In this document: one piece after another, positions 3,368-24,570 of the stretch | How the letters are laid out: each line of letters opens with the position of its first letter | Position numbering within the stretch: position 1 is the first letter of the stretch | Virus record (IMG/VR): IMGVR_UViG_3300025132_000001 | From: an uncultured virus (IMG/VR IMGVR_UViG_3300025132_000001) | Lineage: Duplodnaviria; Heunggongvirae; Uroviricota; Caudoviricetes | Strand: one strand, 5' to 3' | DNA length: 24,840 nucleotides | Made by a program: the position numbers and the translations under genes | The notes under the pieces: model-generated | Told to the model about the DNA's origin: nothing | The model's database searches: none | The model's input: the letters and a program-made list of their open reading frames with translations, nothing else

Positions 3368-6300
3368 ATGGCTAAAAGAAAAAAATATCAATCTGAAGGA
3401 GTATTAGATTACGATGCTTGGAACCAAGAGTTCAATGAAGAGTTTGCGGGACAAACAGCTCCAGATGCAGAGATATCAACAGTTCCTCAACCTTTTAAAG
3501 AAACAAATTTTAATTTATTAGATGCTGTTATTACTACTTCTGAGAATAGAGAAGAAACTTTTAACCAAGCAATAAATCAAAATAGTAATTGGTCACCTTT
3601 ACATGGTGCTACTTTTAATGTTCCTGATTACGAATCCTATCAAAAATATATAGATCGACCTTTTTCTTTTATATCTGATGATCCAGATGACATGCGTGCT
3701 AGAAACCAATCTTTTGGTGAAAAAGCTTTGTATGGTACAACTAAATTACTGACTCGTACTGGTACTAATATTTTAGGATCTACTGTAGGTTTATTTTATG
3801 GTGGTGCTTCTTATATTGATACATTAGTTACTGGTGGACCAGATGCAAGTCCATGGAAAAGTTTTTGGGATAATGATTTTCAACGATCTTTAGATGGAAT
3901 TAATGATTGGATGGATAATCAATTACCACATTATTATACTAAAGAAGAACAACAATATAACTTCTTTAGATCTATGGGGACTGCAAATTTTTGGTTTAAT
4001 GATTTTACACAAGGAGCATCTTTTGTAATGGGAGCTGTTTTGTCTGAAGCTTTAATGAGAGGTTTAGGTAATAGTGCTGCTGTTAGTAAAGCTAATGAAT
4101 TATTTAGAAAAAGTTTTAGTAAAGGTAAATATGAAAAGGTAGGCATAACTCAACAAGAACGTATGAACAGCTTTATGAAAAACGTTGTTAGACCTAGACA
4201 GTTATCTAATGCAGCTGTTAGATTAAGGCAGTTGGGTACAGGAGCTATGTATGAAGCAGGAGTAGAATCAAGACATAATTATGATCGTACATTAGAACAT
4301 TTAGTTCAAATGCACAAAGACGATAATAATGGTCAACAGCCTAATGTTCAAGATATGGCTGATTATGTAGATATTGCAACTAAAACAGCAAATTCTGTTT
4401 GGGCAGGAAATGTAGCATTAGTAGGATATGGTAATTATATGATGTTTCCTAAAATTTTTGGTAAAGGTTATAATGGGACTAAAGCTAATCTTAGAAATAA
4501 AATTAAAACGCAAAACACTATTTTACCAAGAGGTAAAACAAGAACATATAAAAATATACGAGATGACTATGGAAAGTTTGAAGGTATGATGAGAAACATA
4601 TCAAGAATTTTAAAAGTTCCATTATATGAAGGTTTTGTAGAAGAAGGAGGACAAAAAGTATTAGATCTTGCAGGTCATCATGCGGCTGAAACTTTTTATT
4701 TAGCAAAAGCTGATCCTACATATAAATTAGCTGTTGGAGAATTAATGAATTCTATGGACGACGTGTGGGCTAAAGCATACGGATCAACAGAGGGACAAAA
4801 AGAAATAGGGATTGGATTTTTATTAGCTCTTATGGGCGTACCAGGCTATTCTAATACAGCTAATAAAGGTAAAGGTGGATGGACTTGGGTTGGAGGGGCT
4901 ATGCAAAGGGAAGCTGAATTTAAAAAAGAGCAAGAACAAGTTGAAAAATTAGTAGCCTTAGTAAAAAAACATCCACATTTATGGGATGCCACAGAAGCTA
5001 ATTTTAATGCCCTTGTAAGAGCAGAAGTATTAAAAGATATACAAGATGCAGGACTAGTAGTTAATAGTAGTTTTCAATTTAAAAATTCTGAGAATAACGA
5101 AATGTTAAATTTAATCCTTAAAAAAATACAAGCAGGATTAGATTTTACTTTGTATGAAGATATTGATTACATACGAAATATGCGTGTTGATAAGTTTAGA
5201 GAGACATTTGGATGGATGGATCTTGCAGATTTAACTGATGATCAAATTAAAACTAAAAGAAACGAAACTGCAGATTTATTTGCAAATAAAATAGAAGAAG
5301 TAAAAGAAATGTATAATATAGCTTCTACTACATTTACTAATTTTGGTGCAGATCAATTATTTAGTGTCGTTGAAGCTATGGCTGTTCCAAAAGATTCTGA
5401 TACAAGAATGGCTGCGATGAATAAAGAAGCGCGAGAGTTAATGGGAGGAAATATTGAATTAGAAGTTGAAACAGAAAATGTTTCTGATCTAAACAAAAAT
5501 GAACAACAAGGACTTCTTGATAGATTAAGTAATATTTGGAATAGATTAACTGGAAAACAAAAAGATAATATTAATAAATCTCCTGAAGGAAAAAGAACAA
5601 AACGTAAATTAGGTATTAATGAGTTTACAAAAGCTTCTCATGTAGAAGAGTTGTTTGTTACAATTACTGAAGATGTTGCAGCATTAGATAGAAAAATTAA
5701 AGAAGTTGAAAGTGATACTACTTTAACAGAAAAACAAAGAGAAAAAGAATTAAAAAAACTTGAACTTGAAAAAGAAGCTTTACATCAAAGAACAGCAGAA
5801 TTAAGTAAAGGAATTAAAGAAGGATTAGATCCAGATTTAAGTTCTCAAGAACAAGAGATTTTAGATAAATGGAAAAAACAAGATCCTGCAGGCTATGAGC
5901 AAAATTCAGAAAAAGTAATTAATCTTCTTAAAGATATGAGATTACTAAGAGCACGTGCACATAGAGCTACAGATATGTTAAATTATCTTAAAGCTGAACA
6001 TAATGTCGCATTAAGAGAAAATAGTACTTGGTCTAAAGTTGGAAAACATTTACCTAGACCTGAGATCTTACGACAAAGAATGATTGGGTATCAAACAGAT
6101 TTATCTAAAAATATAACAGATACTGAACTGAAAAAAATATACGATAGATATGCAGGTTCTTTTATTGAATTTGATTATACTAGATCTTCTAAAGTAGTTA
6201 TCGGGGACTATAAAAAACATGCTGCTGAAAATAATTTATTAGATTCAGTAACAGCTTTAGCACTAGATAAAATTAATACAGGTAAAATGTCTGAACAAGA

Positions 6301-9300
6301 CGCTTGGAAACAGGCGTTGGAAGAAAAAGGTATTCCATTAGAAGAGCATGCAGAAAAAACTTATAGAGTATTTGTACAAAAAGATTCAGGTACAACTAAT
6401 GAGTCTAAAGTTTTAATTATATATCCTAATAAATTAACTATTGAGTTAATGAGGGAAAAAGAAATATTAGAACGTGTCTTAGAAGAAAACGCTACTAATG
6501 AAACTGCAAAAGAACAGTTAGAAGCTATTGAAAGAAGGTTAGCAGCTATAGGTACTAAACCACAAGTTAGAAGTTTATCTTGGTTAAAAGGTATAAAAAA
6601 TATTAGACGAGTTGATAAAAACATTGTTATTAAAGAAGAATTAGAGCTTATTTTAGAGTCTACAGAAGAGGATCTTCTTAAATCTATAAATGGTCAGCAT
6701 GAAAATATAAAAAAGCTTGAGGACGAGATAAAAGAAATAGCACAACAATTAAGATTATATAGAAAAGCAGAAAGAGAATATAGAAAGTCTCCTAAAACAG
6801 ATAAAGGAAATGTATATATTAAGATCCCAGGTGTAAGAGGTAGAGGTTTTACAGCACAAGGACTAGCTAATAAAATTCAAAGTTTTCAAGATAAGCAATC
6901 GGCTTTAAAACTTGAAGTAGAAGCATTAGATATAAGATTAAAAACACATTCAACACGATTAGCTACATTCTTTCAATTAAAGGAGCAGTTAGGAGAAGAA
7001 ACATCGTATCCTGATTTTGCTAATACAGTACAAGAATATTTTGATGAAAGGTGGAAAGGAGATAAATTAATGTTAGAACAATTAAGAAATACAGAAGCCT
7101 TTATGAATAACCCTATTATTAAAGGTATTTGGAAAGACTTAGATCCACAAAACGATCAGACTGAATTGATTGATGTTCTTACTAATATAGTTGTTACTAA
7201 TAAAGAACCTGTAGGAGAAGAATTAGAAATATTACAAGAAGCTCAAGCTGAATTACATCAAAGGGTAGAAGCTTTACGTGCGGCTGCAGAAAGATTAGGA
7301 AAAGAAATTACATTTAAAAAAGATGGCACATTTAGTTTAAGAGGTAAAGTTAAAGAAGCTACGACACGTGCAGAATATCAAGCTTATCTAGCTGAGATCA
7401 AAGAGCTAGAAGCTGCTATAGAACTTTTAGAATCAAATAAAATAGCTGAAAGTTTTGCAGGAGCAGAAACTGTATTACAAACCAGAGTACAAAGGTGGAA
7501 TAGGCATATTCAACTTAGTAATACAATTGTAGATAATATTACAAGTATTCAACAAATTATAGCAGATCTTACTGGAATAAAACAAGATGTTATAGATTAT
7601 GAATCTAATCCATATTCAGTAGAAGGAGATATGACTCAAGAAGAATTTGAAAATGCTGTTGAGGATGCAAATAAAAAATTAAAACCTGGACAAAGGTCTA
7701 AAGCATATACAAATTCTGTGCCAATTCATATACATGGGTTTAAAAAAACTATTGGAAATCATATACAAGCAATACAAAGACGAAGAGAACTTGTTGAAAA
7801 AGATGTATTAACTCCACAAGAACAAAGAGAGTTGGCAGCTATGGAAGCTCAGTTAAGATTCTTTTATGTTTCTCATATTATGAGGTATAAAAGAAATAAG
7901 AGTGAAATTTTACGTAAAGATGAGCTAGCTTTTGAAGATTATGCCATTGCATTTGTACACAGAGGAATGTTTTCTAAAGAAAATATGGATAAACTTCCAG
8001 ATACATGGAAGTCTGTTATGCAAGCTGAAAATTCTTTTTTATTTTGGGACACTAAAACTAAAAATTATAAAGAAGCAAAAAGTACAGGGTGGTCAAAAAC
8101 ATTAGGAGCCAAGGTTAAAAATGAAAAAGATGAACATATTTTAGCTGTTATAGTAAATAAAAAAACTGGTGCTCCATTATTAGAAGATGGGATGCCTGTT
8201 TATACAGGAGTGATGACAGCTGAATTAACAGAAGAAGTCGTTGATGTAACGGGTAAAAAACAAAACATTACTAGGGGACAAAGAACAGATCTGAAAAAAG
8301 GAGCTAAAAAAGTAATGGTAAAAAGACCAGGAGAAAGAACAGCTAAAGAGGCGTGGGTAGGAACACCTTTACCTGCTGTAAAAGTTTTAGCAGATGAGCA
8401 TGCATCTTTTAGACAAGAAATTTTACAACAAACTGAGCCTTTAGCTGTTGATATTTCAGGTAAATCTCATGGTTTAACTAATTTTGATCAAGGGGTACAA
8501 AGAAAAGTTGCTAGTTCTCTTGTAGCAAATGAAGATTTAGTTAAAGATATTCAATTAGGAGTTTCTACAGATAAAGTACAAAATAAAGTAATTGTTGGTA
8601 AAAGAGAGTATAAAGTAAAAGCGGGCTTTGCATTTATAGATCATAACGATAATATATATAAAGTAAGAGTAGATAAATTAAATGCTTTTTATGTTAAACA
8701 AGTATATAATATGTTACGTTTATATGCTCGTAATTACTTTAATGATAAAATTGTTTTAGAAAATAAAAACAAATTTATGAATGTTAGTGCAGATAATGTT
8801 GCACAAAAAGTTACTGAAAAATCAATTACACAACAAATTAAAGATCTTATTTATTTTGGATCTCATACAAAAACTAGAGAAAAAAGAGCATATAAAATTT
8901 ATTTTGAAAATAATAAATTATACTTTGGTAATAGTGTAATGGATTTAACAGAATTAAATGATCCTGAATCTTTCTCAGAAATTCACACTGCTTTACAAGA
9001 ACATTTAGCTAATATGTATCATCAAATCAATGGTATTAATATATCTAAAGATTATGCAGCTAGAACAACGTATACATCTAAAAATAATCAAAAGCATAAA
9101 GCTTGGAAACAAAAGCTTGATAAGGCTAGTAAGCAAGGAGGATGGACAAATGCAAAAATTACAGCGGCAGTTGGTAAAGAAAAAAGTAAATTATTTGCTT
9201 TAAAAAATAAATGGTTAAAAAAGAATCCAGAGCCCAAAGCAGTATTCCAGCCATATGAGAAGTATACTGAAGTAATGGTAAATGATAATTTAGAAGTTAC

Positions 9301-12300
9301 TCAAAGAGAGTGGTCAAATTATACTGAGTTCTTATTAAGCCAAGGAAAAAGAAATACTCCAACAGCAAGAGAGATAGATGAAATTCCAATTAAATTAGAA
9401 TTATCAGCGCATCCAGGAGCCCTAACAGGATCAAATAAACATCTTAATGCTTCTAAAATAGGAGTCTATTTAAATTTTGGAAAAGCTAAAGCTGTAAGCG
9501 AATTAAAAAGACTTAATAAATTACAAGTTACTTCTCCAAATGTTACACCAGAACAACAAGAAGCAAGTAAATTATTACCTAATAGTGGAATTGAAGTTGG
9601 ACAAACATACGACTACAAAACACCAACGGGACAAAAATTAAGATTTACTTTAAAAGGAATTAATGCAGATTTAAGTTTAGATATTTCAATTAAAAAGGAA
9701 AAAATAGATGGAAAGTTAGTTGAAGTTTATTATGAACCAAATGGTACAATGAAACCAATGGGACCTAAATATAGAAGTTATTTAACTGGACAAGATTCTG
9801 CAGGAGTATGGGTAGGTGAAACTGGAATGTTATGGACTTTAGTAACAGATTCTAAAGGACGAACTGCACAACTAGTTAAAATACCTACAATACTACCTTC
9901 TCCTGAACCAGGTGAAACTAATCAAACGCCAACTAATCCTTTTCCAGGAGGAATGGGCAGTAATAAAGGTGGTAAATCAATGAGTAAAACTACTATTGAA
10001 ATAAGAGATGCTCATGAAACTATGAACTATAAAAAAGAGTATGAAAAGTTTGTAAAAATGGTCCCTAAAGACTCTAAAGGTAATCCTATATTTAAAGTAA
10101 GAAGAGTACGTAATTTACTTAATGGGACTAGTCATGGTTATTGGAGTGGGGTAGCAGATATTTTATTAGATCTAGAAGCACAGACAGGTGCACTTTACCA
10201 TGAGACATGGCATGCAATTGAAGATAGACTTTTAACTCCACAAGAAATAGCAGGAGTTAGAACAGAAGTAAGAAATATAAAAGGTAAAACATCTTTATTT
10301 GGGGCTCCTATTAAAATGGAAGCTCTTACAGATGAACAAATTTCTGAATGGATGGCTGAAGAATTTAGACATTATGTGTTAAATGAAGGTAATTATAAAA
10401 TAGGATCAAATGTACAAAAATCTGTATTACGTAAATTATTTGAATTTATTTTTAAATTTTTAAATAATTTAAATGTTTCACAAGATCTCTTTAAAAAAGT
10501 TCATACTGGTCACTATAATAAGGCTGTTGAAAATTATACTTTATTTGAACCTAAAACAGGTAAAGCAATGTCTAAATCTAGAATTAGTGGGGCAGTTGAA
10601 AAGAAAATAGTTGAAAGTATGTCTGTAGAATTATTTCATATTTTAAATGAACGAGATACATCTATTTCAGAAATTTTAAATATGGAACAATCTGATTTAT
10701 CATTTACTTTATATGAAGCGTATGGTTCAGCTTCAGCTTATGCAGAAAGTGTAGCTAATGGATCGCCTGACTCTAATACGGTATGGGCCCAATTAATGGT
10801 TAGTTTACAAAATGAAGTAACTCAAATAGATGAGTATTTAAAAAATACTAAAAATTTACATCCTGATTTTATAGCAAATGAAGAAGCTAGAAAAATGGGA
10901 TACATACTTACAGCACAAGCTTTAAATAATGATGCATATTGGGATAAACTTAAAAAATGGAATTTAAAAAATCTTCAAGGTCTACAAATTAATGCTAATC
11001 TTGCAGAAGTAATTGATTTAGATCAAATGGAAGGATTAGAAGAAAGCGAAGAAATTTCTAAGGATAAAGTAGCAACTGTTAATCCAAATAAAATTAATCC
11101 TGTTAAACTTTTATCTCCTGAAATAAAAGTATTATTAAAAACATTACCTGTTCAAAACTTTAGTAATAATATTGCAGGTACGTCTGCTTTAGCAGAATAT
11201 GGCGAGGTTATTAGAAATCTATATAAAAACCTATCTAATAAAGATACTTTATTTGATATGTGGTATGCATTAGAACAATTAGCAAGTGAAGATGCTACAT
11301 ATAAAGTTTTAATGCAAAGATTAAAAATAGAAGACTATGCAGCAGGTTTTGATAATTTAGATAACACGGAAATGGCATTAATGGTAGCTTTCTTTACAGG
11401 ATTTAATAAAGCTGCAGATTCATATGTAACACAGTTAGTTAGTAAAACGGGCGGAAGAAACTTTGTAAATTCTAATACTAACTTAATTGAAAACTTAACC
11501 ATGCAAAGATGGAAAGAAGGATTTCAAAATAGTTTATTTAGAAAAAATCTTGGAGCTTTAAATGAAGATGGTGTTTATGTTTTAAATACAGATGCTAAAT
11601 TAACTATTCAAGGTAAAACTAAAAAATTAGGAGAATGGTTTAAGAGTAGAAAAGATAAAGATACAATGCTTATTTTATTAAATGAGTTAGGAATTGTATT
11701 TAGTAATATGGATAATGTAACAGAACTTCTAGACTCTCCAATAGCAGAGAAAGAATTTATGACTGCTGCAAGTAGGATCTTTAGTGAGTTTACTCAATTA
11801 GACAATATAGTAGATATTTTTGAAGATGGTGGTGTTTTTGGTAGAATTAAACAATTAGTTACTATTGAACGTTTAACTACTTTAAAAGCTGTTACTCTAC
11901 AACATCCTAATGTTAATGGTGATCTAGTTTATGGTATTACTAAAAAACATTATATTAATAAATTAGCAGATAAGTTAAATAAAACAGATAGTGAAGTAGA
12001 GAACTTACTTAAATTTGAAAACTTAAAAAATTCTGTATGGTTAAATAGAATTTTAAATGGTGAAAAATTAGAAATTAGAATTCTAGAAGGAGTTAGAAAT
12101 AGAAATGATAAACGAGGACATGATATTTCTAAAACAATAAAAGCTAATATAGCTAATATGCATGTTAACAGTATTTTAGAAGGATACGTACCTTTAATTG
12201 TTACTGGTAATAAAAAGACTAGTAGATCGTTAAGAGTTGGTGAGCCTGGTATAATACCAAGACAAACAATGCTTCAAAGACTTACTGCTTATCTTGTCGA

Positions 12301-15300
12301 TGAAATAATGACTGCTAGAGCTATACAAAATGGAGATAAATCTAAAAGAATAAAAGGATTAACTACTAATGGTAGAGCAGATCTACAATTTTTTAAAGAG
12401 ATTCCTGTTTTAAATTCTTTTGCAAGAAAATATATATCACAAAAAACAGTTGTAACTGAAGAATTATTACAAGACGCACTATTAGATCCTGCTGTCGTTA
12501 AAGCAATGGCATCTATTCTAGATAAAGCAATAGCAGATACTAAAAATGCTTTAGAAAAGTATCATATTATTGATATTGATAATGATGGAATTGTTTTTAA
12601 TAGAGGTATTGATAATTTATTATTAAATAATTTATATAAAGAGTTTAATATAGATAATGCAAGAAAAGGAATAGATCCTGAAAGCGTTGAAGAAGTAACT
12701 AATAAATTAAAGCCAGAATTTTCAGATAGACTATTTATGCAATTAGCTGCATTACAATTAACAGGAATGTTTGAACAATCTAAATTAGTTCTTGGTAATT
12801 TAAATTTATATAATGATCTATTTAAAAGAACTTCTCTAACAGTAGGTACAAAAGATTATCCTTTTGCTGATCAAGGTATTTTAAGTTGGATGGATATAAA
12901 TATGCCTAATCTTATAAACCCAGGTAAAAATCATACAGATATAGTTACGACTGTTACAAGAGCTGAGTTTACTCAAGGTTCTACTTATTTAAATAGTTAT
13001 GTAAAAATATTAGAAGTTTTAGGTAGACAAGATCTTATTCCTGCAGTAGCAGGCGCTTTTTCTAATATGGATATTTTTGATGGTGGTGGATTTATTCAAT
13101 TAGATTTTTATAGACGAGTTTTATTTTTAACTAATAATTGGGGTAATAAACAAGAAGAAGTTTATCAAAAATTATCTAACAATGAAGAACTAACAGCAGA
13201 TGATATTGGCCATTTACCTCCTATAAAACCACAAGTATTTGCAGATCTAAACTTAGACGGCGTAAATTTAAAGAAAGGAGATAAATTTGCACTTTATCCA
13301 GTTCATCCACAATTATCTAAAACACTTTCAACTATTGCAAATAACCAAAGAACTGTAATGGATGATATTTTTGAAGAAATGAATTCTTTTGGTTTAGATT
13401 ATATTACTTTCGAGTCTAGTACAAAAGTAGGGGCAGTACAAAATGAAAGAGGATTTGATCCTATACTAGATAATGAAACTAGAGTGTTTATGCCTTTACA
13501 AGATGAACGAGCATTTGTTACATATAATTTAAATGATTTTGGGATTCAAGTAGATCCTAAATTTAAGTTTTCAAAATCAGTAGCTGCACCAACACAGGGT
13601 ACTTCTTTATTACCTTCTGATATATATAGTAATGGGCAATTAAATCCTAATTATATAGGAAAAGAGTTTAAACCTGATATGACATTTGAGCAAGCTATTA
13701 ATTATTATCATTCTTTAAATACTGAAATTATAAAGAAAGATGTAAATAATTTAGCTAGAAAGTTAGGTTTTATTGAAATAATGACACCACAAGGAAGCAC
13801 ATTTACTTTAATTAACAAAAGAAATAAAAAAGCAGTAGAGCGTTCTATTCTAGAGGAATTACAAAGAAGAGAGCTTCCTATTCATACACAACAAGCTATT
13901 ATGGCAGTTTTCAGATCTCCTGAAACGACGTTAATAAATCAACTTCCTGAAAAAAATAGAATAGAAAATATTTTATACTCTATTGTTAATAACACCGTGA
14001 TCAGAAGAAAGATGACTGGAGAGATGAGTGTAATACAGTCTTCTATGGGATATGAGTTAAGTATACAAAATGAAGGAGGAGTATTTGCTACTATAGACCA
14101 AGTTAAAGAAGAAGGTTTAGATTTAACTCCTTTAAAGTTTTATGCTAAAGATGTTACTCAATTACCTAATGAAACTGATGAAGCTTTCTATGCTAGAGCT
14201 GCAAATAGTAAAACTATGGGCATGGAAGTATATTTACCATATAGTTATAAATCGTTCTTACCAAATCTTGAACCAGGAGCTAAAATTGATCCAGATGTAT
14301 TACAAATATTAGGATATCGTATTCCTACAGAAGGATTAAATTCTATTGAATTTATGATTGTTAAAGATTTTTTACCTCCTCAAAGTGGATCTAGAATTAT
14401 TGTGCCTAATGAAATGGTAGCAAAAGCAGGTGCCGATTTTGATATTGATAAATTAACTTTATTCTTCCCTAATGTAGAATATAATGCTGATACAAATACT
14501 ATTTCTCGTTCTAAAAATATAGAAAGTATTGCAGAGTTAAGAATAAAAGATCCTAATGCTTATATTTCAGCAGCTGTACAACTTTACAAACAATTTGGTA
14601 GTGGGCAAGATTTACTTACTTTTATTAATACATTTAATAGAATTAAAAATGAAGTAAAACTAGAAGAGCAAGAAGCTGAATATGCAGCATTAGATAATGA
14701 ATTGTCTAATCTAGGGTTTTATGAAGGAGCTTTAACACAATTTGAACAGCAGTCTACAGCAGTATTACAAAATAGATTACAAGATTTTATTAGAGATATG
14801 TTATCTCATGAATTAAGTTTTGATCAATTAATTTCTCCTGTAGGTGCTTTTGAAGTTAAGTCTATAGCTGATCAAATACAAGCTAAAAAAATACAGCATG
14901 GAGAAGCTAAAGGAAATATTATTGGTGGACAAAATGGAATTTCATTAATTACTGAAACAGATAATATTTTTGATAAGTTAAGTATTGAAGGAATGGTTGA
15001 AACTTCATATCAAATGTGGTCAACTTTAGGGGGTACAGGAATCGTGGCAAGCTCTATTACAAACTACATTAAAGGACAACGTGCAGGATTAGGTATTAAT
15101 AACTCTTCAGATGCAGTCTTTAATTTTGCAGGATTTGAAAATAATCAAAATGTATCTTTAAGTAATGTTTACGATTTAAATGGTGCAAGGATTAGTAATT
15201 CTATGCGTCAGTATATTACAGCTTATGTGGATGGAGAAAAAGATCCATTTATTATGTTTGTAAACGGAGGTAAAGCATCTGCAGGTGTACATATGTTACT

Positions 15301-17329
15301 ATTAAGAGCTGGAGTACCTTTAAAAACTGTATTATACTTTATGTCTCAACCTATTATCTCAGAATATTTAGAGTTAGTTAATCTACAAAAAGGAGAGCAT
15401 ACTAAAATGTATGGATCTAAAAAAGATTTATATAGAGAAAGTAAAATAAGAGAAACTTTATTAAAATCATATGTAGCAGAACCATTACTTACTCCTGTTA
15501 AATTTTCTACAAACCAGACAGATGACACAGGATTATTAGAAACTATGGTTTATAAAACTAAACTTTCTGGTAAATCTAATTCAATGACAGAAGTAGAACG
15601 TGCTATGCAAAAGCAAATTTTTGAAGATTTTCTACGTTATAAAGATATTGCTGAAGATCTAAGAAAATTACAAGTTATTACATCTTTTGATACAGCTAAA
15701 TTTAAAAATGGAAATGAAGTTATTCAGATGACTGCATTACAAAATATGGTAGCTCAAAAAAATAGATTTTTAAATTGGGAAAGAATGATTGCTGGAACTT
15801 TATTACAACCATTATCTGAAACTGTTTCAAATTTTGGACCTGGTATTATGAGTAATTTCGATTTAAAGTATGCAAAATCAGAAACTAATCAATTACCATT
15901 TATAATGAAAATGGTTCAAATGGCTACAGATGAGTTAAATACTGGTACAACTTCAGAAGCAGTACAATATTTATTAGAACAATTTGATAATCATATTTCT
16001 GCACATGTATTACATCAAACAGCTTCTGCTAATAAAGGATGGACCAATCACATGGGAGATAGATTAAGATCTTTATTTGTGGGAGAAAATAGTTTAGCTA
16101 AACGAATTAGAGATATACAAACAAGTAATAACGATTTAAGATTAAATGGTTTTATATCTTCTTTGCGTCCTGTTATTTCTCCACATCAAAATTCAAGTTC
16201 ATATGAATATACTATTGATAAATTAACTTTAAGAGATAAACAATTAACGACAGAAGATTTAGATGTTTTAGCAAATGAATTTCAAGAAATACAAGCATCT
16301 GATCCAAATCTTGCACAAGATATTATACTGTATTCATTATTAAAATCAGGTATAGCTTATAGTCCTACATCTTTCTTTGAAGCGATCCCAGGAATAGAAG
16401 TTAATAAAATAACTAAAGATATTTTTAGAAACGTACTTGAATATATTAAAATTGATAGATTTAATGAACAAGTAGAAGTTATATATCAAAACTTTTTAGA
16501 TAATAAATGGAATGATAGAAAAATAACAAATTCTTTATGGCACTCTACAGTTCCAAAATGGAATGAAAATAAATCTTTTGAAAGTCTTGAAAATTATGGT
16601 CCTAGAGTAGTTATTATGAAACCTTATAAATCTTCTCAAAAAGGATTAATTGTTAAAGATAAAATTTTACATTTCTTTTATAAGAGAAATGATTTAAAAG
16701 AAAGAATAGAAGAAAATACAACAGAAGGTATTACTTCTACATATTTTACATATGAGCTTCAGCCTGCTAAAGGAATTAGAAATGAATTAATTGAGACTCA
16801 AGAAGGGCCTTCAATTCATAATGCTAATAATGAAAGTAGACCTACAGTAGATCTGTTAGTAACTCCTTCTACAGTGCAAAATGTAGCTAAAGGATCTCAA
16901 GTATTATTGGCTAGACCATTAAATGCTAAACGATTAACTTCAGGTAGATATATGTTATGGTCTGAAAATTCTAAAAATAAAATATTAGTTAGACTTGAAG
17001 AGGTTGGAGGTTTTAATATTAAAAGTTTGAAAAAGAATAAAAATTTCACTAAATTTGGCATAAAAGAAGAGGGGGATATTTATAATGTTTTAGCTAAAAA
17101 ATTAGGGTACACTACTGCACTAGAAATGAAAAAATCTAAAGCAATGGGTAATTTCTCAAAAAATTATATGAAAGTATTTTATGAAATAACGCCTGTAGTT
17201 CAAACAAGTAATACGCAAATAGGTGAAAAAGTAACTTCACCATTAGATACTCAACAAGCTTTAGGATTAAGTGAAAAAGAAAAAGAAGTAATGAAAGAGA
17301 ATATAAATAATCTAAATAACCAATGTTAA
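3368..17329 (+). CDS. Giant crAss-like virion RNA polymerase polyprotein (4653 aa): cargo/membrane region, zincin protease and single-chain two-barrel RNAP
   Basis: Uninterrupted 14-kb ORF. Catalytic loop AGADFDIDK (DFDID at 14435-14449, aa 3690) matches the DFDID motif known from phi14:2 gp66-type polymerases. GYRIPTEG (R at 14318) corresponds to the beta-prime R-x-P-T motif. DGGGFI (13079), PIKPQ, ESSTKVG and YVDGEKDP (15224) resemble conserved motifs of RNAi-RdRP-related two-barrel polymerases. HETWH lies at 10199-10213. Confidence 0.93.
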   Translation: MAKRKKYQSEGVLDYDAWNQEFNEEFAGQTAPDAEISTVPQPFKETNFNLLDAVITTSENREETFNQAINQNSNWSPLHGATFNVPDYESYQKYIDRPFSFISDDPDDMRARNQSFGEKALYGTTKLLTRTGTNILGSTVGLFYGGASYIDTLVTGGPDASPWKSFWDNDFQRSLDGINDWMDNQLPHYYTKEEQQYNFFRSMGTANFWFNDFTQGASFVMGAVLSEALMRGLGNSAAVSKANELFRKSFSKGKYEKVGITQQERMNSFMKNVVRPRQLSNAAVRLRQLGTGAMYEAGVESRHNYDRTLEHLVQMHKDDNNGQQPNVQDMADYVDIATKTANSVWAGNVALVGYGNYMMFPKIFGKGYNGTKANLRNKIKTQNTILPRGKTRTYKNIRDDYGKFEGMMRNISRILKVPLYEGFVEEGGQKVLDLAGHHAAETFYLAKADPTYKLAVGELMNSMDDVWAKAYGSTEGQKEIGIGFLLALMGVPGYSNTANKGKGGWTWVGGAMQREAEFKKEQEQVEKLVALVKKHPHLWDATEANFNALVRAEVLKDIQDAGLVVNSSFQFKNSENNEMLNLILKKIQAGLDFTLYEDIDYIRNMRVDKFRETFGWMDLADLTDDQIKTKRNETADLFANKIEEVKEMYNIASTTFTNFGADQLFSVVEAMAVPKDSDTRMAAMNKEARELMGGNIELEVETENVSDLNKNEQQGLLDRLSNIWNRLTGKQKDNINKSPEGKRTKRKLGINEFTKASHVEELFVTITEDVAALDRKIKEVESDTTLTEKQREKELKKLELEKEALHQRTAELSKGIKEGLDPDLSSQEQEILDKWKKQDPAGYEQNSEKVINLLKDMRLLRARAHRATDMLNYLKAEHNVALRENSTWSKVGKHLPRPEILRQRMIGYQTDLSKNITDTELKKIYDRYAGSFIEFDYTRSSKVVIGDYKKHAAENNLLDSVTALALDKINTGKMSEQDAWKQALEEKGIPLEEHAEKTYRVFVQKDSGTTNESKVLIIYPNKLTIELMREKEILERVLEENATNETAKEQLEAIERRLAAIGTKPQVRSLSWLKGIKNIRRVDKNIVIKEELELILESTEEDLLKSINGQHENIKKLEDEIKEIAQQLRLYRKAEREYRKSPKTDKGNVYIKIPGVRGRGFTAQGLANKIQSFQDKQSALKLEVEALDIRLKTHSTRLATFFQLKEQLGEETSYPDFANTVQEYFDERWKGDKLMLEQLRNTEAFMNNPIIKGIWKDLDPQNDQTELIDVLTNIVVTNKEPVGEELEILQEAQAELHQRVEALRAAAERLGKEITFKKDGTFSLRGKVKEATTRAEYQAYLAEIKELEAAIELLESNKIAESFAGAETVLQTRVQRWNRHIQLSNTIVDNITSIQQIIADLTGIKQDVIDYESNPYSVEGDMTQEEFENAVEDANKKLKPGQRSKAYTNSVPIHIHGFKKTIGNHIQAIQRRRELVEKDVLTPQEQRELAAMEAQLRFFYVSHIMRYKRNKSEILRKDELAFEDYAIAFVHRGMFSKENMDKLPDTWKSVMQAENSFLFWDTKTKNYKEAKSTGWSKTLGAKVKNEKDEHILAVIVNKKTGAPLLEDGMPVYTGVMTAELTEEVVDVTGKKQNITRGQRTDLKKGAKKVMVKRPGERTAKEAWVGTPLPAVKVLADEHASFRQEILQQTEPLAVDISGKSHGLTNFDQGVQRKVASSLVANEDLVKDIQLGVSTDKVQNKVIVGKREYKVKAGFAFIDHNDNIYKVRVDKLNAFYVKQVYNMLRLYARNYFNDKIVLENKNKFMNVSADNVAQKVTEKSITQQIKDLIYFGSHTKTREKRAYKIYFENNKLYFGNSVMDLTELNDPESFSEIHTALQEHLANMYHQINGINISKDYAARTTYTSKNNQKHKAWKQKLDKASKQGGWTNAKITAAVGKEKSKLFALKNKWLKKNPEPKAVFQPYEKYTEVMVNDNLEVTQREWSNYTEFLLSQGKRNTPTAREIDEIPIKLELSAHPGALTGSNKHLNASKIGVYLNFGKAKAVSELKRLNKLQVTSPNVTPEQQEASKLLPNSGIEVGQTYDYKTPTGQKLRFTLKGINADLSLDISIKKEKIDGKLVEVYYEPNGTMKPMGPKYRSYLTGQDSAGVWVGETGMLWTLVTDSKGRTAQLVKIPTILPSPEPGETNQTPTNPFPGGMGSNKGGKSMSKTTIEIRDAHETMNYKKEYEKFVKMVPKDSKGNPIFKVRRVRNLLNGTSHGYWSGVADILLDLEAQTGALYHETWHAIEDRLLTPQEIAGVRTEVRNIKGKTSLFGAPIKMEALTDEQISEWMAEEFRHYVLNEGNYKIGSNVQKSVLRKLFEFIFKFLNNLNVSQDLFKKVHTGHYNKAVENYTLFEPKTGKAMSKSRISGAVEKKIVESMSVELFHILNERDTSISEILNMEQSDLSFTLYEAYGSASAYAESVANGSPDSNTVWAQLMVSLQNEVTQIDEYLKNTKNLHPDFIANEEARKMGYILTAQALNNDAYWDKLKKWNLKNLQGLQINANLAEVIDLDQMEGLEESEEISKDKVATVNPNKINPVKLLSPEIKVLLKTLPVQNFSNNIAGTSALAEYGEVIRNLYKNLSNKDTLFDMWYALEQLASEDATYKVLMQRLKIEDYAAGFDNLDNTEMALMVAFFTGFNKAADSYVTQLVSKTGGRNFVNSNTNLIENLTMQRWKEGFQNSLFRKNLGALNEDGVYVLNTDAKLTIQGKTKKLGEWFKSRKDKDTMLILLNELGIVFSNMDNVTELLDSPIAEKEFMTAASRIFSEFTQLDNIVDIFEDGGVFGRIKQLVTIERLTTLKAVTLQHPNVNGDLVYGITKKHYINKLADKLNKTDSEVENLLKFENLKNSVWLNRILNGEKLEIRILEGVRNRNDKRGHDISKTIKANIANMHVNSILEGYVPLIVTGNKKTSRSLRVGEPGIIPRQTMLQRLTAYLVDEIMTARAIQNGDKSKRIKGLTTNGRADLQFFKEIPVLNSFARKYISQKTVVTEELLQDALLDPAVVKAMASILDKAIADTKNALEKYHIIDIDNDGIVFNRGIDNLLLNNLYKEFNIDNARKGIDPESVEEVTNKLKPEFSDRLFMQLAALQLTGMFEQSKLVLGNLNLYNDLFKRTSLTVGTKDYPFADQGILSWMDINMPNLINPGKNHTDIVTTVTRAEFTQGSTYLNSYVKILEVLGRQDLIPAVAGAFSNMDIFDGGGFIQLDFYRRVLFLTNNWGNKQEEVYQKLSNNEELTADDIGHLPPIKPQVFADLNLDGVNLKKGDKFALYPVHPQLSKTLSTIANNQRTVMDDIFEEMNSFGLDYITFESSTKVGAVQNERGFDPILDNETRVFMPLQDERAFVTYNLNDFGIQVDPKFKFSKSVAAPTQGTSLLPSDIYSNGQLNPNYIGKEFKPDMTFEQAINYYHSLNTEIIKKDVNNLARKLGFIEIMTPQGSTFTLINKRNKKAVERSILEELQRRELPIHTQQAIMAVFRSPETTLINQLPEKNRIENILYSIVNNTVIRRKMTGEMSVIQSSMGYELSIQNEGGVFATIDQVKEEGLDLTPLKFYAKDVTQLPNETDEAFYARAANSKTMGMEVYLPYSYKSFLPNLEPGAKIDPDVLQILGYRIPTEGLNSIEFMIVKDFLPPQSGSRIIVPNEMVAKAGADFDIDKLTLFFPNVEYNADTNTISRSKNIESIAELRIKDPNAYISAAVQLYKQFGSGQDLLTFINTFNRIKNEVKLEEQEAEYAALDNELSNLGFYEGALTQFEQQSTAVLQNRLQDFIRDMLSHELSFDQLISPVGAFEVKSIADQIQAKKIQHGEAKGNIIGGQNGISLITETDNIFDKLSIEGMVETSYQMWSTLGGTGIVASSITNYIKGQRAGLGINNSSDAVFNFAGFENNQNVSLSNVYDLNGARISNSMRQYITAYVDGEKDPFIMFVNGGKASAGVHMLLLRAGVPLKTVLYFMSQPIISEYLELVNLQKGEHTKMYGSKKDLYRESKIRETLLKSYVAEPLLTPVKFSTNQTDDTGLLETMVYKTKLSGKSNSMTEVERAMQKQIFEDFLRYKDIAEDLRKLQVITSFDTAKFKNGNEVIQMTALQNMVAQKNRFLNWERMIAGTLLQPLSETVSNFGPGIMSNFDLKYAKSETNQLPFIMKMVQMATDELNTGTTSEAVQYLLEQFDNHISAHVLHQTASANKGWTNHMGDRLRSLFVGENSLAKRIRDIQTSNNDLRLNGFISSLRPVISPHQNSSSYEYTIDKLTLRDKQLTTEDLDVLANEFQEIQASDPNLAQDIILYSLLKSGIAYSPTSFFEAIPGIEVNKITKDIFRNVLEYIKIDRFNEQVEVIYQNFLDNKWNDRKITNSLWHSTVPKWNENKSFESLENYGPRVVIMKPYKSSQKGLIVKDKILHFFYKRNDLKERIEENTTEGITSTYFTYELQPAKGIRNELIETQEGPSIHNANNESRPTVDLLVTPSTVQNVAKGSQVLLARPLNAKRLTSGRYMLWSENSKNKILVRLEEVGGFNIKSLKKNKNFTKFGIKEEGDIYNVLAKKLGYTTALEMKKSKAMGNFSKNYMKVFYEITPVVQTSNTQIGEKVTSPLDTQQALGLSEKEKEVMKENINNLNNQC
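9989..10558 (+). other. Zincin-like metallopeptidase domain within the vRNAP polyprotein
   Basis: ALYHETWHAI is an HExxH motif (aa 2278-2282). EWMAEEF at 10346-10366 supplies a candidate third ligand, followed by the amphipathic helix VLRKLFEFIFKFL. A Pro/Gly-rich linker (about 9884-9973) precedes it. Boundaries are approximate. Confidence 0.8.
12760..15370 (+). other. Catalytic core of the two-barrel RNA polymerase (beta-like and beta-prime-like DPBB regions in one chain)
   Basis: Motifs occur in order: DLFKR, DGGGFI, PIKPQ, DKFALYP, ESSTKVG, GYRIPTEGLNS, GADFDIDKL, YVDGEKDP. Boundaries are approximate. Confidence 0.85.
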
Positions 17330-17330
17330 T

Positions 17331-20300
17331 ATGGCTTGTAGAGTTATAAAAAATGATCAAGGAAGAGTAATTGAAGTGTATCAAGAAAATGGTACACCTT
17401 CAGTTCTATTTACTCAAATATCTGAAGTATTACCTGATGCTGATCTTGCTTATGCAACTTATCATAGAGCAATGATAGACTCTCAAAGCAATATTGAACC
17501 TACATTTGAAAGTGTATTACCTTATGTACAAGCAGCTAGAAACAATTCAATCGAATACAAAAAAGTTCTTTTAGAAGCAGATGTTCAAAATAAAGAAACT
17601 GCTTTAATAGAAAATCTAGACAATTTTTTAAGAAGTATCAATGTTAATGTATCAATTGTTAATAATCTTGTAGATACAACTACAGATAAACCTATATCTA
17701 TAGCTGCTAGAGCTCGTTTAGGGCAGAAATTAATTGAAATTGCTCAAGATCGTGCTACTTTAAAAGATTTTGCAGAAGAAGGTGCTCACTTTTTAGTTGA
17801 AATATTAAGAGAAACTCAAGCCCCTTTATACACTGGTATGGAACAGTTAGTTACTTCTTATCAGATCTATAAAGATATGATGAAGGAAGATAATTTTTAT
17901 TATCAAAAATATAAAGGAGATCAAGATTTAATAAAAAGAGAAGCTATGGCTAAAATAATAGCTTTAAATTTACTAAATAAAAATTTAGACTCTCAACATG
18001 TCGACACTTCTTTTCAAGAAAGTCCTGAAAAATTATCTAGATTAGAAAGATGGGGAAAAAGATTAGTAGCTTGGATTAAAAAGTTATGGGGATCTGTTTC
18101 AGGAAATGCTTTTGTACAAAGTTCTCAACTTATACTAAATAATTCTTTAGATGAATATTTAGCAGCACAAGGATTATTATCTGCAAAAGAAACTGCAGGA
18201 AATGTAGTATTACCTAATTTAGAAATGCCTTCTGTAGGCCAGCCTAATACTGATACAAAAACAAAAGACATTGTCACACGACTAGATAAATACGATGTTT
18301 ATGAATTAAAAGATGATATTCCTGTTGGAGAAAAGAAATATTGGAAACTTTTAACTGATCAGTCTGATTTATATATTCAAAGATATGTACATAAAGATGA
18401 CGCTTCAAAAATTTTAGAGGTAAGGATGACTGATGCTGCGCAACTGCTCTATCTACAAAAACAAAAAGGTAGAAAATTACCTTATCAAAGTAAAGAAGAA
18501 AAAAAATTCTGGGAAGAGGTAATGGCTAAAAGAGCTGCAACAGGTACTGCAGGTCACAATACATTAGAGGCATTATTACGTTATCACACAAAAGATAAAA
18601 ATATTAAAAGTGATGAAACCACTTTACTTCAAATACAACAAAAGTATGGGTTTAACGATGTTCATTTTAGATTATTAAATGCAAATTTAAAAGCTTTATT
18701 AAAACATACTGCTAATATACAAAAACAAATTGATCCTGAACAATCTCCTATTTATAGACCTGAACAATTTGTTATTAATAAAACAGAAGACGCAGGGGGT
18801 ACAATTGACTTGTTAGTAATTTATAGTAATGGTACTGCTTCTATTTATGATTATAAGTTTTCTACTCCTAGTAAAATGCATTTACACTGGCGTAATAAAC
18901 AACGTGTATTAAAAAGTGATCCGTGGGCAGATAAAACAGAGCAGTACGATGTTCAAATTTCAGGATATAAACAAGCATTATTAGATAAATATGGTATTAC
19001 TGATGTTATTGAATCTAGAATTATTCCTGTGGCTGTATATTATGAAGTCGTAAAAGGTAAACCTACTTCTAGAGTCGTTTCAATGAAGATGGGGGGACAT
19101 TTTTTAAGCGAATTATATACTGCAGAAGAAAAGAAAATATTAAAAGAAGATCCAGACGCAGGCTTTTTAGAACCTATTCCTGTAGCAGGAGAAAAAACAG
19201 GTATAGAAAGTATCGATAGGTTAATTACAAAAGAAAGAGATAGATTAGCAATTTTAATAAAAGAAAAAGGAGATGCTAATTTTCAAAAGAAACAAGTATT
19301 AACTAAAAGAATAGGATTTTCAAGAAACATTTTAAAAAGATTAGCATTAAAAAAGAATGTGGATAGTGCAATTATAGAAGCGTTTAGGGTTCGTAAAAGA
19401 GCTGAAGAGGGATTAGCTTCTAATAATCAAAATGAGAAAAATGAAGATGGAAGTGTTAATACAAAATACATGAAAGATGATGAGCTACAACAAGTTTATT
19501 TAGATCTAAAACATTTTGAAGGGTTTTTAAAACTACAAGATTTAATGGATCATTATGGAAAAATTCAAAAATCTGAGGAAGATGCAGGTAGAAAAAATGA
19601 AGAGTTGTGGAAAGAAATGGAAAAAGAAAAAGAGAATATTAAAAAATTACTTTCTGATGTAGGAGTGTTACAACTTACTTTAGAAGCAATTGAAAACAAA
19701 ATAGTAGAAAGAGCTCAAGATTATGTAAAAAAATTAGGAATGGATCCTCAATCTATAACTAATTATAACACGTCTATAACAGGTATAGGTAAATTAATGA
19801 TACCTTTATCTGCACAAACTAATCCTTACATGCGTGCTATTTATTTAACTAAAAGAGATATTAATTCTAAGATCACACAAGTTACAAAAGAATTAGCTGC
19901 AGAAATAGAAGATATTCAAAATGCTGTAATAGAAGAGTTTGGCCATACAGGAGTTCAAATTTATGATAAACTTATTAATCCTTATACAATGAATTTTTAT
20001 TCTAGATGGGATGAAAGTTGGAGAGAACAAAAAGAACAGGCTTTAGAGACAGGTAATGTTTCTTGGATAAAAGAACATTTTGAAATAAATCCTGCTTTTT
20101 TTGAAAAGAAAGGAAAATTTAATTTCCATACTATGAAAGCTGATATGGAAAAGATTGTTAGAGAGACTATGCAATCAAATCAAGACGGCAGTTTTACACA
20201 AAACCAAAAGAAAGAACTTGAAAGGTTATTGTCTAGATGGGATGTAAAAAGTTTTGATGCTGCTTGGTTAAATCCTAAAAACTTAACTGGTAGATTTGGA

Positions 20301-22896: not shown

Positions 22897-23645
22897 ACGT
22901 AATAATTTTTATTAAATAGTTCATCTTTAAGATTAGGTATACTGAATAATTCTGCATCATCAGGTAAATGTTCTCCAATCTTTTTTTCTAATCTGGCTTT
23001 TCTACGTTTAGACTTAAATAAAATTTGTCCAATAAAATGGTCTGCTTCAAGTTCATGAAATTCAAGTATTTTTATTTTAAACTCTCGTGAAAACTTTGAA
23101 TACTTACCTTGTAGAAAAAGGTCAAAATGTTTATAATGTTTGGTGGGTACGGTAAATGTTAGTAGTATGTATTTTAAAATTCCATCATTTATAATTTCGT
23201 AACTATAAAAGTTTTTAAATTGTTTAACTGTGTTTCTAAGTTTTGCAAATAAAGCATCATTAGAATATTTATAAAGAAGTGTAATTTTGTCATCTAACCT
23301 ATCTATACCTACAAAAGTATTAAAATGAAGTCTATTATAATGCCATAAATTTCTTGTTCCTCCTAACATAGGAGTTAAAAATAATGATGATTTATTTTTG
23401 TTACATGTTTTTAAGTCGTAATACTCAATGTTATTAGTTTTTCTTCGTGATATGATATTTACTTTAAAGGAATTTTTATTAAGATCTATAATTTCTCCCC
23501 TAGAAATTATTTTGTTAGATATTTCTAAAGAAACGATGTCCTTCTCATAATAATGAGGTTTAACGGACTTCATTCCTCCAGAAATTCTAACAATATTTGC
23601 CCCGATATTTGAATATTTAGGGATATCGCATTTAACTTTTGTCAT
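22893..23645 (-). CDS. Hypothetical phage protein (250 aa, basic)
   Basis: Intact ORF overlapping both neighbours (14 nt and 4 nt), ending in TGA. The C-terminal part (FLQGKYSKFS...LEKKIGEHLPDDAELFSIP) resembles uncharacterised crAss-like proteins from recall only. No function can be assigned. Confidence 0.8.
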   Translation of the reverse strand: MTKVKCDIPKYSNIGANIVRISGGMKSVKPHYYEKDIVSLEISNKIISRGEIIDLNKNSFKVNIISRRKTNNIEYYDLKTCNKNKSSLFLTPMLGGTRNLWHYNRLHFNTFVGIDRLDDKITLLYKYSNDALFAKLRNTVKQFKNFYSYEIINDGILKYILLTFTVPTKHYKHFDLFLQGKYSKFSREFKIKILEFHELEADHFIGQILFKSKRRKARLEKKIGEHLPDDAELFSIPNLKDELFNKNYYV

Positions 23646-24462
23646 TACTGTTGGTATTTAAAATATTTACATTAAAAATTTCAAGCTCCTCTAGCTCGAT
23701 ACCTGTGGACTGAAGCACGTCGTCTGCTGAACGCAGAATATATAATAAGTTAAACGTCTCTCCAAAGATACTAATTCCTTTTTGAATTCCAAATTTTTCA
23801 ATGTATTTATTTAATACCACAGTAGGCATATCTGTTAATTTTTGATCTTTTAATATTAATTCAGCTGTTTTAGGGCCTATTTTTGGCACGCCAGGCACGC
23901 CATCACCAGGATCTCCCATTAACATCTGCTTCCATAAAAAGTACTCTGCTTCTGTGCTGTTTATTGTGATCCATTCTGTTTTTCCGTAGTTATAATGTTT
24001 TCCTTTTGTCTGATATATAACATCTTTATCTGGACTACATAAAATAGAGTTGCCAGTTTTATAAGCAACTACTAAATCATCTGCTTCTAATCCTTTTACA
24101 AATTTAAAGTTCCAAGTTTGTTGTATATATTCTTTTAAAGCATAAAAAATAGGAGGTTTTGCTCCACCTTTTCTATTACCTTTATAGGGTCGTGATTTAG
24201 CTACATCGTATCTAAAACATCTTCCTATAGTTAAAAAGCCTGCAAACCTTGCAGTATTGCATCTTGCCAAAATATCTATTATCCTGCGATCTAAGCACAC
24301 CATTGCTTCCTCTAGTGTAGCCTTACCCATTTCATAATAAAGTAAGCTATCACCGTCTATTAAAGCGACAGGGCCATCTTCAGGTAATTCTGGCAATATT
24401 CCAAATAAAGATTCGTTTGAATTGTCTTCCCATAAAGACTCTATTGTTTCACCAATTCCCAT
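23632..24462 (-). CDS. 5'-3' exonuclease / flap endonuclease (T5 D15 / T7 gp6 / PolA N-terminal family), 276 aa
   Basis: Motifs ALIDGDSLLY, FR...YKGNRK, GLEADDL, SPDKD and the helix-3-turn-helix LMGDPGDGVPGVPKIGPKTA are present. ATG at 24462 is preferred over the track's start at 24498, which lies inside an inverted-repeat structure. Confidence 0.92.
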   Translation of the reverse strand: MGIGETIESLWEDNSNESLFGILPELPEDGPVALIDGDSLLYYEMGKATLEEAMVCLDRRIIDILARCNTARFAGFLTIGRCFRYDVAKSRPYKGNRKGGAKPPIFYALKEYIQQTWNFKFVKGLEADDLVVAYKTGNSILCSPDKDVIYQTKGKHYNYGKTEWITINSTEAEYFLWKQMLMGDPGDGVPGVPKIGPKTAELILKDQKLTDMPTVVLNKYIEKFGIQKGISIFGETFNLLYILRSADDVLQSTGIELEELEIFNVNILNTNSNDKS

Positions 24463-24476
24463 AATTATTGTATTTA

Positions 24477-24570
24477 AATAATAAAGCGTACGCCCCACAA
24501 AGTACTAAAATTCAGGGGTGCGGACGACGACCAAGTTTTAAACATCCCCCAAGACGTACGCTCTATTATT
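24477..24570 (-). other. Intergenic inverted repeat / putative structured RNA element
   Basis: Arms 24477-24492 (AATAATAAAGCGTACG) and 24555-24570 (CGTACGCTCTATTATT) are complementary at 15/16 positions. They enclose an inner GGGGTG/CATCCCC pairing and a GC-enriched core. Confidence 0.6.

Follow-up and report, generated by a model that had tools for sequence, protein, structure and literature searches.

How is a protein of 4653 amino acids (aa), which seems to carry a cargo protein, a protease domain and an RNA polymerase in one polypeptide, divided into its parts, if it is divided at all? This question is raised by the longest open reading frame (ORF) of a stretch of 24,840 nucleotides from an uncultured virus of the Caudoviricetes (IMG/VR record IMGVR_UViG_3300025132_000001; the whole stretch that was analysed is called the window). 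In the encoded protein, P0001, a zincin-like domain is bracketed by two nearly identical peptides, GKSMSK (site 1) and GKAMSK (site 2), which lie at the seams to the flanking parts. As judged by comparison with relatives, both peptides change together from lineage to lineage, and the pair is very probably a functional, co-evolving element. We infer cut, bond and enzyme alike from the sequences, and we assign a probability of about 55% to the reading that the pair represents the cutting sites of the embedded zincin. The ORF is laid out as follows:

3368..17329, plus strand: cargo polyprotein ORF P0001, the longest ORF of the window (4653 aa), with a gp67-like N-terminal part, a zincin module and a gp66-like RNA polymerase
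3368..9979, plus strand: N-terminal cargo part, aa 1-2204 (predicted product 1 if cut before Met2205; putative boundary)
9893..9970, plus strand: Pro/Gly-rich linker preceding site 1, aa 2176-2201
9971..9988, plus strand: site 1, GKSMSK, aa 2202-2207, with the Met codon at 9980-9982
9980..10567, plus strand: zincin module (predicted product 2), aa 2205-2400, 196 aa, based on the core of an AlphaFold2 (AF2) model and on VIA-align
10199..10213, plus strand: HETWH metal-binding or catalytic motif, aa 2278-2282
10355..10369, plus strand: AEEFR motif with a candidate third metal ligand (Glu; putative role), aa 2330-2334
10559..10576, plus strand: site 2, GKAMSK, aa 2398-2403, with the Met codon at 10568-10570
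10568..17326, plus strand: RNA polymerase part (predicted product 3), aa 2401-4653, 2253 aa
14435..14449, plus strand: DFDID catalytic motif of the polymerase, aa 3690-3694

The DNA of site 1 reads GGTAAATCAATGAGTAAA and that of site 2 GGTAAAGCAATGTCTAAA; the two 18-mers are identical at 15 of 18 bases, and the copies differ in the codon of the second serine (AGT versus TCT). A Pro/Gly-rich stretch, KIPTILPSPEPGETNQTPTNPFPGGMGSNKG, lies directly upstream of the first copy, and HETWH, the sole HExxH motif of the protein, sits between both copies. An initial annotation of the window had described a duplicated GK[S/A]MSK motif around the zincin domain, with the first copy behind a Pro/Gly linker and with different codons for the second serine, and each of these points was borne out, including the coordinates and aa positions. 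The main support for the repeat, however, comes from the relatives rather than from the window sequence alone.

A search with the region returned 72 homologues (2872-5544 aa), and an exhaustive profile search yielded 2519 cluster representatives at E <= 0.001; the rows of a full-length alignment misplaced the flanks, and cut stretches were used instead. Both places are kept in the relatives, as the initial annotation had predicted for true cutting sites, though the literal GK[S/A]MSK is confined to P0002, a protein 97% identical to P0001. In the nearest clade (P0001-P0010, 34-40% identical in the region), the pattern G-[AK]-[SA]-[MLF] is present at site 1 in nine of ten proteins and at site 2 in all ten, and elsewhere in these proteins it has 0-2 further matches per protein, with 0.82 expected from composition. 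Distant clades have matched peptides of their own at these two seams, e.g. xPFFL and EAYFE, or APFLS and NVYMS, and most of the family shows a hydrophobic or aromatic residue, then Arg, then an aliphatic residue at both seams, as in the matched pairs EVYRLQ/SDYRLQ, RYRPVI/RYRPII and KNYRIA/KSYRIA. The place of site 1 is found 12-17 residues upstream of the first conserved helix of the domain. The named phages came from a separate tblastn search or via the polymerase search: cr50_1, found by the former, has the pair VPFRKV and APFKVR, cr118_1 has NPFDRL (or GASMKG) and APFKIN, and gp47 of the cultured phage crAss001 (locus 22428-29453, minus strand) has FELRQV (L2086) and AEYRVE (Y2295) around an HExxH motif at position 2157 of 2341 aa.

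Among 188 aligned relatives, the site 2 column holds F in 69, Y in 50, L in 35 and M in 12 sequences, with 9 gaps, and it is hydrophobic in 171 of the 188. This distribution bears on another proposal of the initial annotation, i.e. that translation starts internally at the Met codons at 9980 and 10568, or that these codons are remnants of the starts of formerly separate genes. It is true that both motifs contain Met, that GGTGG lies 7 nt upstream of the ATG at 9980, and that split relatives break the gene near site 2. However, the Met position is usually F, Y or L at site 2 in the relatives, and site 1 varies likewise; the true starts in the window are A/T-rich without a Shine-Dalgarno-like word, and 17 of the 117 in-frame ATGs have such a word anyway. 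Moreover, the natural gene breaks are located about 24 to 46 residues past site 2 or, upstream, at a distance of 100-180 residues from site 1, rather than at the peptides, and a word-based search found no protein below 2559 aa that carries the domain (the exhaustive profile search later gave split forms of 2417-2572 aa). Since Met is usually replaced by F, Y or L in relatives and true starts have no Shine-Dalgarno-like word, we rejected internal starts, which are hardly credible.

The co-variation of the two peptides was assessed in two sets of representatives. With a matrix derived from site 2 of other clusters, 16 of 26 representatives had their best upstream match at an offset of -12 to -17 relative to the domain anchor, where about 4.7 would be expected; seven of the 26 reached p < 0.05 against shuffles, and the combined p according to Fisher was 8e-7 with shuffles and 1.5e-4 with other windows from the respective proteins as the reference. 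In this set, the similarity was 5.23 for cognate and -0.01 for non-cognate peptides (0/20,000 permutations), and permutation within three clades only gave p = 0.011. The larger set comprised 77 representatives at 60% identity, 56 of which had a usable pair under a fixed rule, the remaining 21 having been removed before the count. For these 56, the similarity of cognate site 1 and site 2 peptides was 7.68 compared to 2.10 for non-cognate ones (0/20,000 permutations), and in relation to swaps with the three nearest relatives it was higher by 3.26 (35 up, 21 down; Wilcoxon p = 8.9e-4); the swap test gave p = 0.0029 when the two best-conserved positions were excluded. Kinship inflates every one of the permutation tests, and the nearest-relative control lessens this effect and does not remove it. 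It is the excess of cognate pairs over swapped nearest-relative pairs from which the joint change of the peptides was concluded. The co-variation goes to identical residues at the same positions, which suggests two ligands of one reader rather than mutually pairing strands.

The candidate reader is the domain enclosed by the two seams. HETWH is located on a helix (residues 81-94 of the domain model), and H2278, E2279, A2330, E2331 and R2334 are invariant in all 73 relatives, E2332 in 71 of them. The AEEFR motif follows 52-53 residues downstream of the first His and provides a putative metal ligand. In the AF2 model of aa 2195-2415, the predicted local distance difference test (pLDDT) values of the core are 80-94. 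In a VIA-align search with this domain-only model, 13 chains among 48,161 reached Z >= 5: the N domain of Certhrax was at the top (Z 7.9), and PPEP-2 (Z 7.7, root-mean-square deviation (rmsd) 3.3, 127 aligned residues), the catalytic domain of anthrax lethal factor (LF; Z 7.6, rmsd 3.9, 132 aligned), PPEP-3 (Z 7.2, 130 aligned) and PprI (Z 7.1) were among the matches. The top eight span Z 7.9-6.8 and include LF, PPEP, Certhrax and PprI, and the top 50 rows are zinc metalloproteases almost throughout; the larger model (aa 2140-2560) retrieved the same families at Z 6.4-6.9.

The seam peptides lie outside the confident fold. In the larger, 421-residue model, residues 34-49 and 58-75 have pLDDT values under 50, and the second of these stretches includes site 1; site 2 falls into the low-pLDDT stretches 249-257 and 261-265, and the next segment is a helical domain with pLDDT 80-90. 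In the domain-only model both motifs are in the ends with pLDDT < 50 (residues 1-15 and 193-221). The concern that the motifs might fall inside folded domains is thus not supported by either model.

No third site was detected. Clade-specific four-residue patterns, chosen post hoc, were confined to the two seams in 10 of 10 proteins, and a scan of 4068 aligned columns in 34 full-length relatives with their own peptides returned the two seams only (mean Z 5.8 and 5.7, values that are high by construction; next best column 1.69). A candidate third site, G-[LA]-S-F near aa 190-245, was discarded as a family-wide motif of the N domain that does not change with the seams. These data also bear on the possibility that a protease other than the embedded zincin, encoded by the host or by another phage gene, cuts the seams at the peptides. 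In favour of this, crAss001 has an aspartyl protease gene, Gp66, elsewhere in its genome (by annotation only). However, a shared external enzyme would be expected to keep one common motif that is used in other virion proteins as well, whereas the peptides are private to each lineage, bracket the zincin exactly and have no third copy in the polyprotein; in the neighbouring ORFs, no four-residue pattern match was present in the one of 855 aa and a single loose match in the one of 1718 aa. Arg after the hydrophobic residue at site 2 tracks the sequence of the domain, being present in 27 of 34 proteins with HExxE and in 2 of 21 with HExxH; this association is confounded by relatedness, and as Arg at site 1 is common with HExxH too, we do not rely on it. 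On balance, cutting by another protease is improbable.

Several lines of evidence weigh against the reading that the pair represents cutting sites of the embedded zincin. First, some of the sequence comparisons are unfavourable, and the removal of 21 representatives and the influence of kinship mentioned above belong here as well. The repeat by itself is not above chance, since P0001 contains 49 hexamer pairs with 5/6 identity as compared to 57.2 +/- 9.6 in 200 shuffles. An unbiased best-6-mer test of the upstream versus the downstream window ranked the cognate at the top in only 4 of 73 proteins (P0001, P0002, P0056 and P0058); two others reached rank 1-2 with the seam peptides, and most proteins did not stand out; the test is too blunt for a motif that has only 3-4 residues. 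P0010 has no hydrophobic residue at site 1, and the seam peptides of the P0011-P0016 clade are dissimilar (similarity -1.33). The hexamer counts and the weak best-6-mer test would also be expected if two low-complexity linker peptides resembled each other by chance, without any function. Such a chance likeness seems very unlikely to us: a 5/6 pair that brackets the domain core, with one copy at most 35 positions before and the other at most 35 after it (windows picked post hoc), appeared in only 99 of 20,000 composition-matched draws, and, moreover, the places are kept across about 190 relatives and the co-variation holds against nearest relatives.

Second, the assignment of the fold has limits. 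Foldseek found nothing at E <= 0.001 with either model (E-values at least 0.069), and the domain alone gave no relevant Pfam family at E <= 10, no PHROG and no PDB sequence match with the family profile. As all VIA-align Z values are below 8, the models support a zincin fold, with the nearest structures in the anthrax-LF/PPEP group, with moderate strength. The domain resembles LF and PPEP-2/3 (M34-type) in its fold, the HExxH helix and a conserved Glu further on; it differs in the lack of a sequence match, in Z values below 8, in its position inside a protein of 4653 aa and in that half of its family has HExxE. M34 membership was not assigned: the Pfam and PDB searches gave no sequence-level match, and for this reason the domain is filed only as zincin-fold.

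Finally, position 2282 is His in 36 of 73 relatives, as in the window, and Glu (HExxE) in 37, and neither AF2 model placed one of the peptides confidently in the cleft. If the HExxE domains are inactive, their kept peptide pair must serve something besides self-cleavage. This leads to an alternative in which the peptides are docking or latch elements that remain uncut: both seams would bind one site, which might be the zincin cleft, with the peptides as pseudo-substrates, or a capsid or portal partner involved in packing and in ordered ejection. Such elements should show the same co-variation and placement, the HExxE proteins have the most regular pairs, and split relatives retain both peptides despite their separate polymerase gene. 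In addition, the C-terminal domain of the virion RNA polymerase (vRNAP) of phage N4 has an HExxH subdomain, and the terms autoproteolysis and self-cleavage were not found in the accessible part of the corresponding paper (PMC13434306). On the other hand, the catalytic-type residues are invariant across the family, and AF2 provides no confident docked conformation. Moreover, a substrate-like peptide at both borders of a domain is the usual layout of a self-excising protease. Uncut docking elements are thus a possible but rather unlikely explanation.

What would be separated by cuts at the two seams? The polymerase part of P0001 can be recognized by its match to phi14:2 gp66 (PDB 6vr4_A), of which aa 1205-1675 align with aa 3508-4004 of P0001 (E 3.7e-20), and the catalytic DFDID motifs of the two proteins are aligned to each other; with the polymerase core, tblastn matched 75 phage records, mostly Crassvirales. 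The N-terminal part matches PHROG 32390 on aa 93-491 and phi14:2 g067, of which aa 62-396 align with aa 102-487 of P0001 (E 1e-7), and it is homologous to the zincin-bearing protein of Dulem virus 41 (E 2e-22). With these homologies of both parts and the gene order g067, g066 (polymerase) and g065 in phi14:2, the ORF at 3368-17329 is a fusion of a gp67-like cargo protein and the polymerase. No protease family was assigned to the whole protein by Pfam or PHROGs (no Pfam family at E <= 0.1), and a PDB sequence search with the N half of P0001 gave no match. Cuts at both peptides would give products of about 2204, 196 and 2253 aa, so that the sizes suggested in the initial annotation hold: the stand-alone polymerases have 2180 aa (phi14:2 gp66) and 2247 aa (Dulem virus 41), and since the stretch from site 2 to the first conserved polymerase block varies by 50-125 residues, their N-termini can be placed on P0001 only roughly. 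The protein of this marine crAss-like phage is probably injected as cargo; packaging and injection of the polymerase would follow from the proteomics of phi14:2 and crAss001, as annotated or reported.

The window thus shares with the Crassvirales module (gp67-gp66-gp65 in phi14:2, gp47-gp50-gp49 in crAss001) the polymerase and the homologous N part, and the known phages differ in how the parts are joined. In crAss001 gp47 and in Dulem virus 41, the zincin is at the end of the N-cargo protein, whereas the window has a peptide fusion in place of this first gene break; cr50_1 and cr118_1 share the fused form of the window. In Dulem virus 41, N cargo and zincin form a protein of 2474 aa that ends about 24 to 42 residues past the place of site 2, depending on the mapping, and the gene for the 2247-aa polymerase comes after the zincin-bearing gene; crAss001 gp47 ends 46 residues past Y2295. 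A second class of split proteins (P0080, P0085, P0144 and P0172; 2417-2572 aa) has a common N-terminus with Cys at residue 4-6. These proteins start 100-180 residues upstream of site 1, and site 1 peptide, zincin and polymerase then follow, so that their gene break lies before the zincin whereas it lies after the zincin in crAss001 and Dulem virus 41. The seams are real module borders. Since the peptides are kept in fused and split genes alike, freeing the polymerase from the fusion cannot be their whole purpose. The original idea of release sites for the polymerase is therefore supported in that the peptides are conserved and lie in linkers, and too narrow in that the pair is kept where the polymerase is a separate gene. 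Similarly, the idea of a relic of gene fusion agrees with the breaks that split relatives have about 24 to 46 residues after site 2, but not with the presence of both peptides around the zincin of those very relatives.

We suggest that the ORF encodes an injected crAss-like cargo polyprotein with a gp67-like N part, a zincin protease of about 196 aa and a gp66-like two-barrel RNA polymerase, and that the two peptides in the flexible seams would be the recognition sites of the embedded protease itself. Cuts at both would excise the protease, with the N cargo (about 2204 aa) and the polymerase (about 2253 aa) as separate products. The P1' residue preferred by thermolysin-type zincins is hydrophobic, and on this basis the bond is predicted to lie just before the hydrophobic residue (GKS↓MSK and GKA↓MSK). 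The cuts might occur during virion maturation or after ejection into the cell. In crAss001 gp47, they are predicted near L2086 and Y2295, and since this protein has its own matched pair the prediction is testable in an existing cultured system. The proposed arrangement resembles that of picornavirus 3C and alphavirus nsP2, where a protease within the polyprotein has its own recognition peptide at both borders in flexible linkers. The window module shows this layout of a self-processing polyprotein, i.e. an embedded protease with the same conserved and co-varying border peptide in flexible linkers; the self-excising proteases of RNA viruses are, however, Cys or Ser enzymes, whereas the window has a zinc metalloprotease fold of predicted activity in the cargo of a DNA phage. 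The giant virion RNA polymerase of coliphage N4 is an injected, T7-like single-subunit enzyme with a C-terminal HExxH subdomain, according to the accessible part of the report (PMC13434306); it is a giant injected protein with HExxH like that of the window, a likeness by description.

Terminal cysteines were observed throughout the cargo module. The relevant features of the window are:

17324..17326, plus strand: sole Cys codon of the 4653-aa protein, which is its last residue
17331..22487, plus strand: next cargo ORF, 1718 aa, with its sole Cys at residue 3 (codon 17337-17339)

In three named phages, such tail-to-head Cys pairs are present at every gene break of the cargo module: in phi14:2 (gp67 Cys 1797 of 1797; gp66 Cys 3 and 2179 of 2180; gp65 Cys 3), in Dulem virus 41 (Cys 2471 of 2474; Cys 4 and 2247 of 2247; Cys 5) and in crAss001 (gp47 Cys 2339 of 2341; gp50 Cys 5 and 2404 of 2412; gp49 Cys 5). 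Among homologues of at least 3500 aa, Cys is found in the last eight residues of 184 of 191 proteins and in the first eight of 4 of 191, at an overall Cys content of 0.042%. The terminal pairs suggest disulfide chaining of the ejected cargo, and the fused junction of the window would then be the place that needs a protease. A disulfide has been solved in the pre-ejectosome of cyanopodophage A4, where Cys1715 of gp27 is linked to Cys5 of gp26 (PMC12002296, in its accessible part); the geometry described there is tail-to-head as in the terminal Cys pairs of the window, but the proteins are unrelated. It is tempting to speculate that the cargo proteins pass the tail as one string, each junction being a peptide bond or a tail-to-head Cys-Cys bond, and that the zincin, together with the two seam peptides private to its lineage, acts as a self-excising joint of this covalently chained cargo. 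The string would be parted in the cell by reduction and by the protease, and specificity and sites would have co-evolved in each lineage, releasing and perhaps activating the polymerase. We regard this extended view as tentative and rather doubtful in its entirety.

That a fused crAss-like polyprotein is 'likely cleaved' is already in print, and the phi14:2 paper left undecided 'whether activation requires proteolysis'. In a partial coverage of the literature, beyond which more may be in print, we found no paper that names cleavage sites or paired peptides in crAss-like polyproteins; the main text of the crAss001 atlas contains no terms for proteolysis, cleavage or protease, and its text-form supplements hold no gp47 data. 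Among the viruses of the human gut, crAss-like phages rank first in abundance, and they are also common in the sea, according to the accessible portions of the literature. Candidate cutting sites bear on how the injected polymerase of these phages is packed, delivered and switched on, and the lineage-private, co-varying peptides constitute a natural data set on the co-evolution of protease and substrate.

The position of the HExxH motif differs in phi14:2, where it is found in gp65 after the polymerase, whereas the zincin of the window lies ahead of it. This motif (HEIMH, aa 245; g065 locus 16910-21175) is the sole HExxH of the phi14:2 cargo module, with none in gp67, and BLAST detected no similarity between the zincin of gp65 and that of the window; it seems that the protease module has been moved or replaced in the phi14:2 lineage. 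Among the neighbouring genes of the window, the 1718-aa ORF has a weak match to the PHROG 'exonuclease' family phrog_298 (E 2.9e-10, aa 390-556), and an ORF of 288 aa on the minus strand (23632-24498) matches the exonuclease family phrog_107 (E 5.8e-48). In the records of cr50_1 and cr118_1, the homologous polyprotein is labelled 'DNA helicase' or 'exonuclease V', apparently a misannotation.

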